A stretch of 7,411 bases of DNA, taken from IMG/VR virus record IMGVR_UViG_2698536341_000008. The stretch is one strand, 5' to 3'. The notes below the pieces were generated by a model. It ran no database searches and was not told the DNA's origin. It worked only from the letters and a program-made list of their open reading frames with translations. Of this stretch, positions 473 to 7,154 are shown one piece after another. Source of the DNA: a virus (taxonomy: Duplodnaviria; Heunggongvirae; Uroviricota; Caudoviricetes). Numbering within the stretch: position 1 is the stretch's first letter; each line of letters begins with the position of its first letter. The position numbers and the translations under genes were made by a program.

Positions 473-754
473 TTAGTGATGTTCTTTGCCCTTCTGTTTG
501 CCTGTTCTGACCTGTTCCCACTCGATACGTCCTTCTTCTCGTCTTTTGTCTATGTATTCCGCAAGATCCTGAATATTGATGCAACGTTTTGCTTTTTGTG
601 ATGTGCCGATGCGATATGTTGGAACGGGCAACTTACAAGCGTTTGCTTTTGCTTCTGCTGTGGCTGGACTCATACCAAAGTACTTTTGGCTAACTGCTGA
701 GAGTTCAATGTTTGAGGTATTGAATTCAGCCATCAGTAAAAACAAGGTGTTCAT
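473..754 (-). CDS. Excisionase-like (Xis/RDF-type) small DNA-binding protein, about 93 aa; start uncertain, ORF track extends to 829 with a TTG start
   Basis: Segment SQKYFGMSPATAEAKANACKLPVPTYRIGTSQKAKRCINIQDLAEYIDKRRE follows the pattern I recall for small winged-helix excisionases (Tn916 Xis-like layout). Preferred start ATG 754 has GGAGAA 5-6 nt upstream; the 829 start would overlap the upstream gene by 35 nt. Last gene of the leftward operon, followed by a terminator. Family assignment is from memory, not a search. Confidence 0.45.
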   Translation of the reverse strand: MNTLFLLMAEFNTSNIELSAVSQKYFGMSPATAEAKANACKLPVPTYRIGTSQKAKRCINIQDLAEYIDKRREEGRIEWEQVRTGKQKGKEHH

Positions 755-3311: not shown

Positions 3312-3674
3312 TTAATGACCTGCTGCGCGGAGTTTTCCGTCAGGTTCACCGGCAAGAGTCAGTAATTGTCCCTGGTCTTCCTGCAGAATAGTCAGGCGAC
3401 CACCGCGATTGACATACATCGGCGTTTCGGTGGTGTCTTCTTCGGAAATTTTCCCGCGGTTAGTCGGGCGAACATATGAGAGTTTGTGTTTGATTTTCAC
3501 ACGGTTCTCATCAAATGGTTCGATTTCCAGGTTGAGCGAGACCTTACCTTTGGTTTTCGTATTCATCACACCGGAAGCGACTTCACTGAGAACAGCGCCG
3601 ATTTTGGTTTCAAATACGCCGCCGTCCAGCTCCCCGATAAATGCCTGCACATCAGTACTGCGTTCGCTAGCCAT
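3312..3674 (-). CDS. Hypothetical prophage early protein, 120 aa (first gene of the leftward operon; YfdP-like size and position)
   Basis: ATG 3674 (MASERSTDVQAFIGELDGGVFETKIG...) with GAGGAG at 3682-3687 and a 7-nt spacer. The ORF-track extension to 3860 adds a Cys/Arg/Gly-rich, non-protein-like N-terminus with no RBS and is treated as leader. Confidence 0.7.
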   Translation of the reverse strand: MASERSTDVQAFIGELDGGVFETKIGAVLSEVASGVMNTKTKGKVSLNLEIEPFDENRVKIKHKLSYVRPTNRGKISEEDTTETPMYVNRGGRLTILQEDQGQLLTLAGEPDGKLRAAGH

Positions 3675-3722
3675 TTTGCTGCTCCTCATCATATCGACCC
3701 TGCAAGGTCGGTTGGTTTCTCC

Positions 3723-3811
3723 ACAAAACAGAGAAGAACACCTGCGGTGGCAGCCGCCCGGATGGATTGGGTTATGAGCCCGTCGGCCGGTGATGCTCTT
3801 CTCTGTTTTGT
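3723..3811. repeat. 15-bp perfect inverted repeat (ACAAAACAGAGAAGA ... TCTTCTCTGTTTTGT) forming a long stem with a 59-nt structured loop
   Basis: Read directly: 3723-3737 is the exact reverse complement of 3797-3811. Lies immediately downstream (minus-strand sense) of the leader terminator U-tract and about 35 nt upstream of the RBS of the 120-aa gene. Confidence 0.8.
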
Positions 3812-3857
3812 AAAAAGAGCGGTACCAGCCGGAAGCAAGTGTACAAACTGGTACCGC
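3811..3857 (-). terminator. Candidate intrinsic terminator inside the early-left leader (10-bp GC-rich stem GCGGTACCAG/CTGGTACCGC followed by UCUUUUUA on the minus strand)
   Basis: Perfect 10-bp inverted repeat 3819-3828 / 3848-3857 with a 19-nt loop; plus-strand A-run 3811-3818 gives the U-tract on the minus-strand transcript. The loop is longer than in typical terminators, so efficiency is uncertain. Confidence 0.5.
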
Positions 3858-4288
3858 CAAAGCAGTGGCTGTTGTGGTGACCGGTGCTGATCTCCGGCTT
3901 GCGGTTATTTCAGACTCTCACGGGCGTTTAATTGCCCCGCCGAACAGCTCTTTTCCGCAATAGCTGCAATGTCTTTCGCGCATCAGCCTGCGCATTCACC
4001 ACAACGCTGAGAGCACTTAGCCAGTTACGGCACCACACTTTGTCGCGGTTCCATAAATGCCCTCATCGTTGCACCCTGGTCTCTTCCCAGGTGTCAAACC
4101 GAACCGCCACGCTGGTTAGGCGTCTTATCAGCATCATCATTGACTTGCACATTCCGGCTACCTGGTTTGTTTGCTCGAGCAAGGAGTGGATTGTCCCCTT
4201 TAACGTCCCCAGACCGCTAACGACGCATGTGCCATACGCCGTGTTACAACCAAATTTTGTTAGTACCTTGTTTGTTTGTCTGGAAAGA

Positions 4289-4396: not shown

Positions 4397-5089
4397 TTAA
4401 TTGTGTCGCTTAAGGGTTTGTGACTGGCTGATTAAGACCTTTCCAAAGACCATAAACCGGTGTTCATTTTCGCTGGTAATTCCCCATTCACGGTAAATCT
4501 GGTTATCAGAAATCACCAGTAGTTTGTCAGGTATCATTTGCAGTCGTTTGACATAAATTTTATCATCAAAACCAAATACATAGATACCATCTCCATCAAA
4601 CTGATTGATACTGACATCAACGAAGATGAGATCTCCTGGCTCAATGGTTGGACACATACTGTCCCCACGAACGTTGATAACTTTAATGTGATTGGCTGGC
4701 CGTCCGCCAAACATCGATACAGCATTATCAGTTCTGTATTCAATGGCATGAATCACATCAATGACATCACCGCCCTGGATAAGGCCATTTCCCGCACTGG
4801 CACTGACATCCAGCATTTCAATACGGAATACATCCTTCACCTGCGCAACATCCTCACTAATACTGTTTTTAAATACAGTATTACTTTTGACGTCTGAGGT
4901 AAAGAGATCAGCAATATCAACACCTAAGCTCCTGGCAATATTACTCAGGGCTTGTTCAGTGAATTGTTTCTGCTTACCTGTTTCCAGGCGTGAGATATTC
5001 GCCGCATCCACTCCTATTGCTTCAGCGAGATCGGCGATTTTCATGTTCTTCGCCTGGCGAAGTTGTCTGACTCGGTTTCCTATGTTCAT
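4397..5089 (-). CDS. cI: CI/LexA-type prophage repressor: N-terminal XRE-family HTH plus C-terminal S24 peptidase (autocleavage) domain, 230 aa
   Basis: N-terminus IGNRVRQLRQAKNMKIADLAEAIGVDAANISRLETGK resembles 434/P22 repressor HTH. C-terminal domain carries the Ser/Lys dyad motifs GDSM (..VRGDSMCPTIEPGDLIFVD..) and ..YVKRLQ.. / ..FGKVLIS... Candidate Ala-Gly cleavage site in the linker (SASAGNG). Divergent from the cro-like gene. Confidence 0.9.
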   Translation of the reverse strand: MNIGNRVRQLRQAKNMKIADLAEAIGVDAANISRLETGKQKQFTEQALSNIARSLGVDIADLFTSDVKSNTVFKNSISEDVAQVKDVFRIEMLDVSASAGNGLIQGGDVIDVIHAIEYRTDNAVSMFGGRPANHIKVINVRGDSMCPTIEPGDLIFVDVSINQFDGDGIYVFGFDDKIYVKRLQMIPDKLLVISDNQIYREWGITSENEHRFMVFGKVLISQSQTLKRHN

Positions 5090-5186: not shown

Positions 5187-5447
5187 ATGCAATCACCATT
5201 ACGGAATGTGCGTAAGACGCACGGATTTACTTTGCAGCATGTTGCTGCTGGCGTTCAGGTCAATCCAGCGACGCTGAGTCGTATTGAAAGACTGGAACAA
5301 ATTCCATCTATCGATCTTGCAGAACGTCTGGCCAATTTTTTTAAGGGTGAAATCAGCGAAATGCAGATTCTTTATCCGGCACGTTTTCAATCTAGCCAAA
5401 ACCAGAATGGGTTTAAACCACAGGAACAGGAGGTAAGCCGTGGGTAA
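5187..5447 (+). CDS. cro: Cro-like XRE-family HTH regulator (86 aa)
   Basis: HTH segment FTLQHVAAGVQVNPATLSRIERLEQ; GGAGG 4 nt upstream of ATG; divergent from the repressor; 3' end overlaps the next gene start by 8 nt. Confidence 0.8.
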   Translation: MQSPLRNVRKTHGFTLQHVAAGVQVNPATLSRIERLEQIPSIDLAERLANFFKGEISEMQILYPARFQSSQNQNGFKPQEQEVSRG

Positions 5448-5997
5448 TCATAACTGGAAAGTGGAAAAACAGCCTGAGTGGTACGTGAAAGCTGTCAGAA
5501 AAACTATCGCGGCGTTGCCGGAGGGTTACGCTGAAGCTGCTGAGTGGCTGGATGTAACAGAGAACGCATTATTTAACCGCCTTCGTGCCGATGGCGATCA
5601 GATTTTCCCGCTGGGATGGGCAATGATTTTACAACGTGCTGGTGGCACTCACTTCATTGCTGACGCTGTGGCGCAGTCTGCAAATGGCGTCTTTGTGTCT
5701 CTTCCTGACGTCGAGGATGTGGACAATGCCGATATTAACCAGCGTTTACTGGAAGTCATTGAACAGATCGGCAGTTATTCAAAACAGATTCGTTCAGCAA
5801 TCGAAGACGGTGTAGTGGAACCGCATGAGAAGACAGCAATTAACGACGAACTGTATCTTTCAATTTCGAAGCTCCAGGAGCATGCAGCACTGGTCTACAA
5901 AATCTTCTGCGCTCCAGAAAATAGTAACGCCCGCGAGTGTGCAGCTCCGGGCGTCGTGGCGTCGATTGCTTCTGGTTGTGGAGAAACTAACGCATGA
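5440..5997 (+). CDS. CII-position regulatory protein (185 aa) with HTH-like segment; function inferred from position only
   Basis: GTG start 5440 preceded by AGGAGG (5428-5433) with a 6-nt spacer; translationally coupled to cro upstream and to the next gene downstream (ATGA overlap at 5994-5997). HTH-like stretch AEAAEWLDVTENALFNRL. Family not confidently recognised. Confidence 0.6.
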   Translation: MGNHNWKVEKQPEWYVKAVRKTIAALPEGYAEAAEWLDVTENALFNRLRADGDQIFPLGWAMILQRAGGTHFIADAVAQSANGVFVSLPDVEDVDNADINQRLLEVIEQIGSYSKQIRSAIEDGVVEPHEKTAINDELYLSISKLQEHAALVYKIFCAPENSNARECAAPGVVASIASGCGETNA

Positions 5998-7154
5998 ATA
6001 GTTTAACGGCAAATAACCGTTTGTCGCAACAGCTGGTGGTCAGCGTCGCTGAACACCTGTTGTTACGGCATGAATGCAGATTACCAAATCACCTGGCTGT
6101 AAGTAACCACAGAGAACTTTACCTGACTGTGGGGGGCGAGTTGTGCAGGAACTTAACCGCTGGTTTCGTGACGGAAGAGGGCTTTATGTCCATGTTATTC
6201 GTTGGGAGCCAGAAACACAGCGCGTTATCTATCTTCGCAAAGACTACCCGCATGAGTGCTTTAGTCCTTTGTGGAAATTCAGGCGTGATTTTGTTGAGTG
6301 TGAAGGACCACCAGCATATTGATTCTGCAATTCCGGGACGTTACACTGCTCAGGCACCTTATAAAGCGGGTGCCGGGATTGGCGTCCTGAAATTGTCAAC
6401 GGCGATGTATGACGCGCCAGCGTCTTTTTTATCGTCCGCATTTGCTCACATCCAGATTATGGTGGGCTGGGCGGGGGCACCGAAAGGTGCGCCGGTCTCC
6501 GTTGACGCCGGTTACGCCAACCCCGTCCAGTTCACCACCAGTGAAATTGGCGTTTCCGGTGGTGGAAGTTTTTCACTGTCAACGGAGGCTGCCATCATGG
6601 CTACGATCCCAGCCCTCACTCAACCTGAAATCACCATTGACAACGGCCAGGCCGTTACCACTTCTTTGGCTGTTGCCAACTTCTTCTCCAAGCGTCACGA
6701 CGATGTGCTGAAAAAGATCCGCACTCTGGATTGTTCCCCAGAGTTTTGTGCCCGCAATTTTGCGGAGACATCGATTTCGGTAAATCAACCGAACGGTGGT
6801 ACACGCAAGCTCCCTTGCTATCAAATCACACGAGACGGTTTTGCGTTTCTTGCTATGGGTTTCACGGGTAAACGTGCTGCCCGGTTCAAAGAGGCATACA
6901 TAAATGCCTTTAACCAGATGGAGAAACAGCTTTCAAAGCCCGCTGTACCGAGCGACGTTGCACATAACGCCAGCGTTCTCTGTTCCTACATTTCATCAAT
7001 TCATCAGGTCTGGCTGCAGCAGCTTTATCCTATGTTGGCAAAAGCCGAATCTCCGCTGGCTGTTAGCTTATATGACTATATTAATGATGCTTCGGCGCTG
7101 GCCTGTCTCATAAATTTGTCGCTGAACCCTTCAGAGGTAAGGGGGCGCAAATGA
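5994..7154 (+). CDS. Rha-family phage regulatory protein (Rha domain in residues ~202-310) with an unusual ~200-aa N-terminal extension; alternative start at ATG 6597 would give a 186-aa Rha-only protein
   Basis: Rha signature as I recall it: TQPEITIDNGQAVTTSLAVANFFSKRHDDVLKKIRTLDCSPEF...YQITRDGFAFLAMGFTGKRAARFKEAYINAFNQME. ATG 5994 overlaps the upstream stop (ATGA). Frame 0 stays open with strong G-first periodicity over 6323-6596. A near-perfect internal RBS (GGAGG 6584-6588, 8-nt spacer) precedes Met-202 exactly at the Rha domain start. Confidence 0.6.
   Translation: MNSLTANNRLSQQLVVSVAEHLLLRHECRLPNHLAVSNHRELYLTVGGELCRNLTAGFVTEEGFMSMLFVGSQKHSALSIFAKTTRMSALVLCGNSGVILLSVKDHQHIDSAIPGRYTAQAPYKAGAGIGVLKLSTAMYDAPASFLSSAFAHIQIMVGWAGAPKGAPVSVDAGYANPVQFTTSEIGVSGGGSFSLSTEAAIMATIPALTQPEITIDNGQAVTTSLAVANFFSKRHDDVLKKIRTLDCSPEFCARNFAETSISVNQPNGGTRKLPCYQITRDGFAFLAMGFTGKRAARFKEAYINAFNQMEKQLSKPAVPSDVAHNASVLCSYISSIHQVWLQQLYPMLAKAESPLAVSLYDYINDASALACLINLSLNPSEVRGRK

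Follow-up and report, generated by a model that had tools for sequence, protein, structure and literature searches.

A widespread tRNA-like leader RNA with an initiator anticodon arm at the entry of early-left operons in lambda-like phages

The locus and its inverted repeat

The immunity region of a lambda-like prophage makes up a 7,411-nucleotide stretch of DNA from a virus of the Caudoviricetes (IMG/VR record IMGVR_UViG_2698536341_000008), which we refer to as the window. To the left of its cI-type repressor gene lies a non-coding leader of about 600-700 nucleotides, which is followed by yfdP-, yfdQ- and yfdR-like genes, all on the minus strand (Table 1). The subject of this work is an RNA element that has the leader terminator on one side and the yfdP-like gene's ribosome-binding site on the other. 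Our sequence comparisons indicate that it is a widespread, unannotated tRNA-like leader RNA that carries an initiator anticodon arm, for which a role can be proposed. The order repressor, long leader, yfdP-family gene is also annotated in mEp460, ST64B, phiNP and LLS. In the window and in these annotated relatives there is no N gene in the usual first position after the early-left promoter PL, and a yfdP-like gene is found there instead.

The initial annotation of the window had pointed to a perfect 15-bp inverted repeat, enclosing a GC-rich loop of 59 nucleotides, directly after the leader terminator. This description is accurate. The arms (3723-3737 and 3797-3811) are fully complementary over 15 nucleotides, the pairing reaches 25 nucleotides at 84% complementarity, and the sequence between the arms, 3738-3796, is 68% G+C by our own count. 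No longer perfect inverted repeat exists in the window at loop sizes of up to 100 nucleotides. That such a stem is improbable by chance is also borne out, as the maxima in 60 dinucleotide-preserving shuffles were 8-12 bp. In minus-strand orientation the U-tract of the terminator hairpin (3812-3818 and 3857-3819, respectively) runs straight into the 5′ arm, and the 3′ arm ends 35 nucleotides before GAGGAG and 48 nucleotides before the ATG at 3674. Folding of the minus strand, which had been suggested as a check, gives -73 kcal/mol for a stretch of 171 nucleotides (z = -6.0).

The inverted repeat is the closing helix, P1 (20 bp), of a three-way-junction RNA of approximately 110 nucleotides, 3711-3819. 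The original view of a stem with a loop is partly right: there is a selected structure in the minus-strand RNA, but the 'loop' is an ordered pair of helices, P2 and P3. A small hairpin that had been noted within the loop, CACC-GCA-GGTG, is not conserved and competes with the helices that are supported by covariation. The U-tract pairs with GGAGA on the 3′ side, both in the minimum free energy fold and in the RNAalifold prediction, and thus extends P1 by about five pairs; this extension is not kept in promoter-proximal copies of the element.

Table 1. Coordinates of the element, its neighbours and the late-region relatives (window positions unless a contig is named).
Feature	Position	Strand	Sequence or remark
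cI-type repressor gene	4397-5089	minus	
cro-like gene	5187-5447	plus	
CII(CP76)-type gene	5440-5997	plus	
Terminator left of the repressor gene, then operator-like palindromes	4376-4359		
Leader terminator hairpin	3819-3857	minus	GCGGUACCAG...CUGGUACCGC; arms 3848-3857 and 3819-3828, 19-nt loop; perfect 10-bp inverted repeat, in the minimum free energy fold
U-tract	3812-3818	minus	CUCUUUUU; from the sequence
P1, 5′ arm	3792-3811	minus	ACAAAACAGAGAAGAGCAUC; contains the 15-nt arm 3797-3811
Junction A	3791	minus	
P2 arm	3758-3790	minus	CCGG/CCGG base helix, internal loop with GA/UC pairs, apical hairpin
Apical hairpin of P2	3769-3781	minus	GGGCUCAUAACCC; CAU at 3776-3774; unique match in the window
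P3 hairpin	3744-3757	minus	GCGG CUGCCA CCGC; covariation at 2 of 4 pairs
Junction A	3743	minus	
P1, 3′ arm	3723-3742	minus	GGUGUUCUUCUCUGUUUUGU; contains the 15-nt arm 3723-3737
Single-stranded 3′ flank	3711-3722	minus	GGAGAAACCAAC (family consensus GGAGAAACUAAC)
Hairpin HP2	3695-3710	minus	CGACC UUGCAG GGUCG; between the element and the ribosome-binding site
Shine-Dalgarno and start codon of the 120-aa yfdP-like first early-left gene	3672-3687	minus	GAGGAG 3687-3682, ATG 3674-3672; from the open reading frame list and the sequence
Late-region tRNA-like genes (class 2)	L396 6278-6349; L097 14609-14685; L488-L491 about 601-680		

The stem had further been proposed as the partner of a boxA-like element. 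As no coordinates were given for the latter, we assume that it is the GCUCUUUUUAC run just 5′ of the stem, and on this assumption the proposal fails. The run is the tail of the terminator, and relatives read CCCUUUUUAC or CACUUUUUUAC at this place. We rejected a boxA reading of GCUCUUUUUAC, since the sequence is not conserved among relatives.

A conserved RNA from the minus strand

Two alignments were used to study the conservation of the element, one of 23 sequences (A1) and one of 34 sequences that are under 95% identical (A2). The pairing of P1, P2 and P3 is retained in 93.4% of the cells in A1 and 92.4% in A2, with changes on both sides, i.e. compensatory changes, at 9 and 12 pairs respectively. 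None of 500 shuffles matched the observed pairing and covariation, and a control in which the partner columns were slid gave pairing of only 33-49%. RNAalifold predicts the identical P1/P2/P3 fold unaided. The stem is thus kept in homologues by means of compensatory changes, and the disruption by non-compensatory substitutions that had been put forward as a possible refutation was not seen. The perfection of the 15 pairs is a different matter: it holds in the window, but in the family the 11th pair is a C.C or C.U mismatch in 31 of the 34 representatives. Judging by these sequences, perfection is peculiar to this Escherichia coli subfamily.

The strand can be told from the substitutions. There are 71 G.U cells versus 35 A.C cells, with 19 of the latter at a single doubtful pair, and one U.G wobble is retained in 30 of 34 sequences. 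A covariance model of the element (R1) scores 115 bits on the minus strand versus 36 bits on the plus strand. The compensatory changes, the excess of G.U over A.C and the minus-strand score all argue that the element acts as RNA. The element is 106-135 nucleotides long, with length variants that are not multiples of three, and the spacing of the arms ranges from 59 to approximately 85 nucleotides among relatives. This variation argues against a dimeric DNA site and against a conserved open reading frame. The element is an RNA made from the minus strand, and neither a DNA palindrome nor a coding sequence.

The protein-coding alternative deserves mention since reading frames have been annotated over the element in some records (ymfH in the K-12 prophage e14 and gp36 in mEp460), and the window itself has two on the plus strand, 3409-3777 and 3486-3890. 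We rejected it because the indels are not multiples of three and the covariation fits an RNA. The compensatory changes and the strand-specific G.U wobbles are at odds with a protein-binding palindrome in the DNA as well, as is the variable spacing of its arms.

Conservation is not uniform over the structure. Near-invariance is seen in P2, in half of the P1 pairs, at both junction A's and in the GGAGAAAC flank. P2 is the most conserved part of the element, with compensatory changes at 5 of its 11 pairs in A2, and the 3′ flank is nearly invariant in both alignments, whatever gene lies downstream. The terminator, P3 and HP2 on the other hand retain their shape while their sequence drifts. For example, relatives have a hairpin and a U-tract in the place of the terminator with other stem sequences (phage LLS has a canonical terminator of 9 bp and U6), P3 is variable in length and loop and grows to 35-40 nucleotides in some relatives, and a hairpin is kept at the place of HP2 with different stems and a loop that is mostly U(U/G)GCAG, whatever gene follows.

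The initiator anticodon arm and a late-region relative

The tip of P2 reads GAC-GGGCUCAUAACCC-AA, and its inner 13 nucleotides are identical to the anticodon stem-loop of the E. coli initiator tRNA, tRNA-fMet (13 of 13). Three of the six bases flanking this match agree with tRNA-fMet as well. The tRNA sequence used as a reference is 100% identical to tRNA-Met genes, with about four copies in each of 5426 E. coli genomes. Three G-C pairs in the anticodon stem set the initiator apart from elongator tRNAs, and the element has all three.

Our first scan for relatives was fixed on the P2 hairpin, so we re-sampled with an anchor on the 3′ arm, which gave 71 distinct sequences. The loop is CUCAUAA in 41 of these, CUCAUUC in 16, UUCAUAA in 4, CUCAUUA in 3 and something else in 7. 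The CAU anticodon is kept in 67, the U at position 33 in 65 and the GGG/CCC stem in 63, whereas a purine is found at position 37 in only 47. The hairpin thus matches a real tRNA in having a seven-nucleotide anticodon loop with U33 on top of a stem rich in G-C pairs. No partner covarying with the loop variants (CUCAUAA, CUCAUUC, CCCAUCA, CUCCUAA) was apparent by eye in the GGAGA flank, in P3 or HP2, at the ribosome-binding site or further up in the leader; only the trivial complementarity of CAU to AUG start codons was noted.

The remainder of a tRNA is missing from the copy at PL. ARAGORN calls no gene in the window or the related loci, and we therefore rejected a real tRNA gene; the Rfam tRNA model has no match at E ≤ 10. 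In place of an acceptor stem ending in NCCA there is GGAGAAAC, and there is no T-loop (UUCRANY), the P3 loops being CUGCCA, UUGCAG, CUUCCUAA and others. As a separate observation, the contig L054, from a metagenome-assembled genome, contains at about 3660-3730 a sequence resembling tRNA-fMet from which the variable region and the T-arm's 5′ half are missing (…GUCGGGCUCAUAACCC-AAUCC-UGCUCCCGCAACCA) and which reproduces the CCCAAUCC junction of the element. It could be a truncated tRNA or an assembly artefact.

A sister form of the element, here called class 2, is located in the late region. R1 gave a partial second copy in one Klebsiella-type contig, approximately 230 nucleotides after the Q antiterminator gene, and the core string of this copy is found in 98 viral contigs, mainly of Klebsiella phages. 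It nearly always follows the final gene of a tRNA array (Asn, Phe, Thr, Arg or Met) at a distance of 5-6 nucleotides and precedes the holin and endolysin genes, i.e. it lies between Q and the lysis genes. Class 2 consists of an end stem of 6-7 bp, the junction A and P2 as in the element, a covarying P3, a discriminator base and CCA. By our own count from the alignment NCCA is kept in all but two of the class-2 variants, and divergent members still have CAU (UUCAUAC, UUCAUGA, or on a GGA/UCC stem). It has neither a D-arm nor a T-loop, is missed by both ARAGORN and the Rfam tRNA model, and is annotated in no record. Given the distance of 5-6 nucleotides to the tRNA arrays and the encoded NCCA, we expect that class 2 must be excised by the enzymes that process tRNAs.

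R1 matches class 2 in all eight of the late-region loci tested, at 22.8-40.5 bits. The aligned part, model positions 23-85, comprises the top six P1 pairs, junction A, P2 and P3. From these matches the core of the PL element appears homologous to the class-2 gene. On the strength of this alignment the PL element can be described as a tRNA-like core with an acceptor-type stem that was lengthened to 20 bp and a CCA that was lost, and the initiator identity of P2 looks like no accident. Class 2 resembles the known tRNA genes in the late regions of phages, downstream of Q, in that it takes the next slot of the array with the normal spacing of 5-6 nucleotides and encodes CCA. Unlike these genes it has no D-arm or T-loop, and the PL copy forms part of an mRNA leader, where a helix of 20 bp closes it.

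Such kinship also raises the possibility that the PL element is a functionless, decaying remnant of a captured tRNA-like gene. The clear relationship of its core to a tRNA-like gene at another place in phage genomes makes capture by recombination likely, and the defective prophage e14 has a copy with a degenerate loop. Yet the conservation of sequence and pairing across many genera is far above that of the flanking terminator, P3 and HP2, and the changes in the element are compensatory. Taken together, the remnant, DNA palindrome and coding alternatives are very improbable.

Might the P2 hairpin itself be the working part? In this case it would bind a host component that recognizes the anticodon arm of tRNA-fMet, with P1 as a clamp only. 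Candidates are the P site of the 30S subunit with IF3, the methionyl-tRNA synthetase MetRS, or an anticodon nuclease specific for tRNA-fMet, such as VapC/MvpT in Shigella and Salmonella. Through this contact the hairpin would control initiation at the first early gene, or it would protect the translation of the phage as a decoy or a sensor. The complete identity to the initiator stem-loop, including its three G-C pairs, and the matching flanking bases speak for such a mimic, as does the retention of CAU, U33 and GGG/CCC in the unselected sample of 71 while the terminator, P3 and HP2 drift. Even the most divergent members of class 2 retain CAU, U33 and a purine at position 37, and NCCA is present in this class. 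Conservation across eight host genera suggests that the partner is a conserved component of the host and not a phage protein that co-evolves with the element. A contact of this kind is needed for the near-invariance of CAU, U33 and the G-C pairs, for which RNase III gives no explanation.

Several observations fit a mimic less well. Position 37 is U in about a third of the PL copies, whereas to our knowledge real tRNAs always have a purine there. Rare members have CCU, CAC or a 6-nucleotide loop, and e14 has UUAAUAA. Only three pairs of the stem match the tRNA, while the two pairs below do not, and a decoy that is present once per transcript would be far outnumbered by the thousands of tRNA-fMet molecules. 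No AUG is conserved at P-site distance from the GGAG flank, nor did a consistent upstream reading frame emerge: candidates starting at UUG or GUG in the HP2 loop after GGAG were rejected, as they have spacings of 11-19 nucleotides, mixed frames and inconsistent lengths. We regard the mimic as possible, tentatively, and as the main rival to the processing role that we discuss below, with which it is compatible. A wider version, in which the leader mimic and the late CCA-ended form both engage a component that reads tRNA-fMet, and so steer or protect translation initiation during phage development, is doubtful.

An anticodon stem-loop copy on a helical arm upstream of a ribosome-binding site is reminiscent of the thrS operator, which is recognized by the threonyl-tRNA synthetase, and of other tRNA-like leaders, and there are tRNA-like processing signals that are cut by RNase P. 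The element differs from these systems in that it mimics the initiator and is followed by phage genes (yfdP-like, xisE and others), not by the cognate synthetase, and in that the PL copy has no cloverleaf, T-loop or CCA.

Placement and possible function

The region of the element was found by blastn in 62 phage records. A pattern scan located it in more than 20 species of Enterobacterales, including Citrobacter, Enterobacter, Kosakonia, Mixta, Klebsiella, Leclercia, Phytobacter and Erwinia, and the conservation spans Escherichia and Salmonella as well. With an anchor on the 3′ arm only, the element was found in 120 viral contigs. Among complete E. coli genomes 2809 of 5426 (52%) carry it, and a single genome may have as many as five copies. 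A record titled Chryseobacterium sp. (L022) has a typical element of the Enterobacterales type and a yfdP-like gene, and is probably contaminated or mislabelled.

In spite of this abundance, we found no prior description of the element in the searchable literature. Rfam 15, run on the whole window, gave nothing at E ≤ 1 for the element region and only noise at E ≤ 10 on 3660-3880, although this is weak evidence of novelty because Rfam also lacks put, the antitermination site discussed below, and the lambda N leader.

The placement of the element is more constant than its company. A search with R1 yields one full-length copy in the window, one in every related locus covered and one in the complete mEp460 genome. 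In all cases the copy comes downstream of the repressor gene and PL and ahead of the first gene, the identity of which varies: it may be yfdP-like, start with MNNPFFKN or MKLPKF, or be xisE as in e14, and in some loci further leader modules follow. In two lineages, e.g. a Mixta-type prophage, the long leader and the terminator are missing and the element, about 25-30 nucleotides after the promoter, is the sole feature of the leader. The element thus acts in cis, once per phage, at the entry of the early-left operon, whatever the first gene. The homologues of the 120-aa gene in the window are annotated as the yfdP family. Its product has no Pfam match, and a search for close relatives returned identical copies only, which is uninformative on phages without the element.

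The copy in e14 is convenient for further work. It is located at 3007-3115 of L268 (89.5 bits), directly upstream of xisE-intE, and has the degenerate loop UUAAUAA, GGGUUAAUAACCC. The 'ymfH' reading frame (L268 2829-3140) overlies this copy, the terminator and a part of the upstream module, and is probably not a gene.

The leaders hold further structures. Just upstream of the terminator in the window a long-range helix, GUUGUGGUGA/UCACCACAAC (3871-3880 with 3996-4005, minus strand), encloses about 115 nucleotides of leader. Words of this helix also occur in ST64B, Kp4866-6, LLS and e14, and the module that contains it accompanies the terminator and the element in many phages. An extra hairpin with a U-tract lies upstream of the element-abutting terminator in LLS (L004 1190-1240, CUGGCUG...CAGCCAGCUUUUU) and in ST64B (L001 1195-1228, CUGGCGG...CCGCCAGCUUUUU), and these leaders therefore have at least two terminator-like signals before the first gene. 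The leaders of Kp4866-6 (L002 about 1200-1290) and phiNP (L003 about 1225-1300) carry two hairpins with T-loop-like heptaloops, CUGG UUCGAUU CCAG and UCCG UUCGAUU CGGA. These are further tRNA-like pieces; ARAGORN calls no tRNA at them.

Elsewhere in the window, on the plus strand, Rfam annotates isrK at 6354-6430 (62 bits) and C4 antisense RNA at 6455-6542 (81 bits), together with a weak match to the c4 target at 6341-6393. All three lie inside a mechanically called reading frame, 5994-7154, the first part of which is therefore likely non-coding. The region 6341-6542 is likely an antirepressor immunity region of the P1/P7 type. At 5972-5990 (plus strand) the sequence GGUUGUGGAGAAACUAAC forms the end of the CII-like gene and doubles as the ribosome-binding site of the next reading frame. 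It approximately repeats the end of the 3′ arm and the flank of the element (family consensus GUUGUGUGGAGAAACUAAC), and this resemblance may reflect a mosaic boundary sequence.

Located where the PL transcript of N-less lambdoid phages begins, the element invites comparison with put, the cis-acting structured RNA of HK022 and HK639. By analogy, the three-way junction would bind to RNA polymerase as it emerges, and the enzyme would then resist pausing and termination, including by Rho, through the early-left operon. The N gene is indeed missing from its usual position, with a yfdP-like gene first after PL, and the authors of the LLS study speculate that this phage uses a put-like mechanism (PMC12315714). 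A promoter-near site at the operon entry, present whatever genes follow and sometimes the sole leader feature, would suit this role, and so would the strong sequence conservation that is expected of a contact with a host machine.

The element is nevertheless not a put RNA of the HK022 type. Put consists of two adjacent stem-loops of approximately 70 nucleotides and is found in both early operons, whereas the element has another sequence and architecture and occurs as one copy per phage. No analogue of putR was found by R1 in the rightward operon, neither in the window nor in the whole mEp460 genome. We built a covariance model (R2) from 14 put sequences, with stem I ACGGCGCG...AUGCGUCGG and stem II GGCGGG...CGGCAAU. 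It recovers HK022 putL (94.9 bits), HK639 putL (90.2) and HK022 putR (47.3), but nothing at E ≤ 10 in the leaders of the window, ST64B, Kp4866-6, phiNP, LLS, e14 and L113. Conversely, R1 has no match in HK022, HK639 or the PL region of lambda. The conserved terminator lies upstream of the element, which therefore cannot rescue it, and no convincing intrinsic terminators are found downstream in mEp460 or LLS. A fold that is closed by 20 bp forms only once about 110 nucleotides have emerged, unlike the compact put RNA. An antiterminator of this type is therefore unlikely.

Closer to PL, the segment 4178-4250 (minus strand) of the leader forms a 10-bp hairpin and has ACGGCG...CAUGCGUCG in common with stem I of putL in both HK022 and HK639. 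This likeness was seen by eye, and as a put-like leader the segment was rejected, since the put model does not match it.

The role that we favour, with a probability of about 0.35, is that of a processing and translation punctuation element. In the fold, P1 corresponds to an acceptor-type stem stretched to 20 bp, P2 is a long arm that carries the copy of the initiator anticodon stem-loop at its end, and P3 stands in the place of the T-arm. In the role proposed here, host nucleases that recognize long duplexes and tRNA shapes would cut the read-through transcript at the element, with RNase III acting on P1 and RNase P possibly at the base of P1. The cut would detach the terminator-bearing leader, and the released upstream RNA would end like a terminated transcript. 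The early mRNA would then start just upstream of HP2, a hairpin that would make it more stable and keep the ribosome-binding site accessible. That the CAU loop is so strictly conserved implies an additional partner, one that recognizes the initiator anticodon arm. An RNase III site, an mRNA stabilizer and a protein-binding platform were all suggested in the initial annotation, and each is a plausible candidate role.

The closest parallel is the structure in the N leader of lambda, between nutL and the N ribosome-binding site, which is reportedly cut by RNase III, activating the translation of N (Steege 1987; Kameyama 1991; Wilson 2002). Like the element, it belongs to the PL leader and directly precedes the first early-left gene. 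It folds into a matching topology, a long basal stem and two inner hairpins that end approximately 15 nucleotides before the N ribosome-binding site. Both RNAs thus have a long basal duplex around two inner hairpins, ending 15-35 nucleotides before the ribosome-binding site; in the window P1 has 20 bp, or 25 with the U-tract/GGAGA extension. A duplex of 20-25 bp with a central 1x1 mismatch, as seen in most members, resembles the RNase III sites of phages. The expected excision of the class-2 sister form by tRNA-processing nucleases also speaks for a processing role. The element departs from the N leader in its strongly conserved, tRNA-like inner arms, in the terminator that abuts its 5′ side, and in that cleavage by RNase III is only predicted.

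A number of points weigh against this role. RNase III needs little sequence, which leaves the near-invariance of half of the P1 pairs and of the P2 loop across genera unexplained, and processing gives no reason for a CAU anticodon in particular. The PL copy, without NCCA and T-loop, is a poor substrate for RNase P. Phages with almost no leader still keep the element, although they have nothing to cut away. In lysogens, PL is repressed. Lastly, no sequence homology to the N leader was detected when R1 was run on lambda 34800-35800 with filters off.

We expect the element to be of use in several ways. It is the sole constant feature at the entry of the early-left operon of N-less lambda-like phages, and hence a handle on early-left expression. 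It is very common, being present in 52% of complete E. coli genomes and in many other Enterobacterales, and its presence in K-12, in e14 under the annotated ymfH, makes genetics easy. Even if its function were only RNase processing, annotations would be corrected and a new RNA family would become available to resources of the Rfam type. Mimicry of tRNAs is a current theme in the conflict between phages and hosts over tRNA-targeting defences. The copy of the initiator anticodon and the kinship to a tRNA-like gene without a D-arm tie the control of phage genes to such mimicry, and if the mimic reading is true, the element would represent viral mimicry of a tRNA directed at bacterial initiation.

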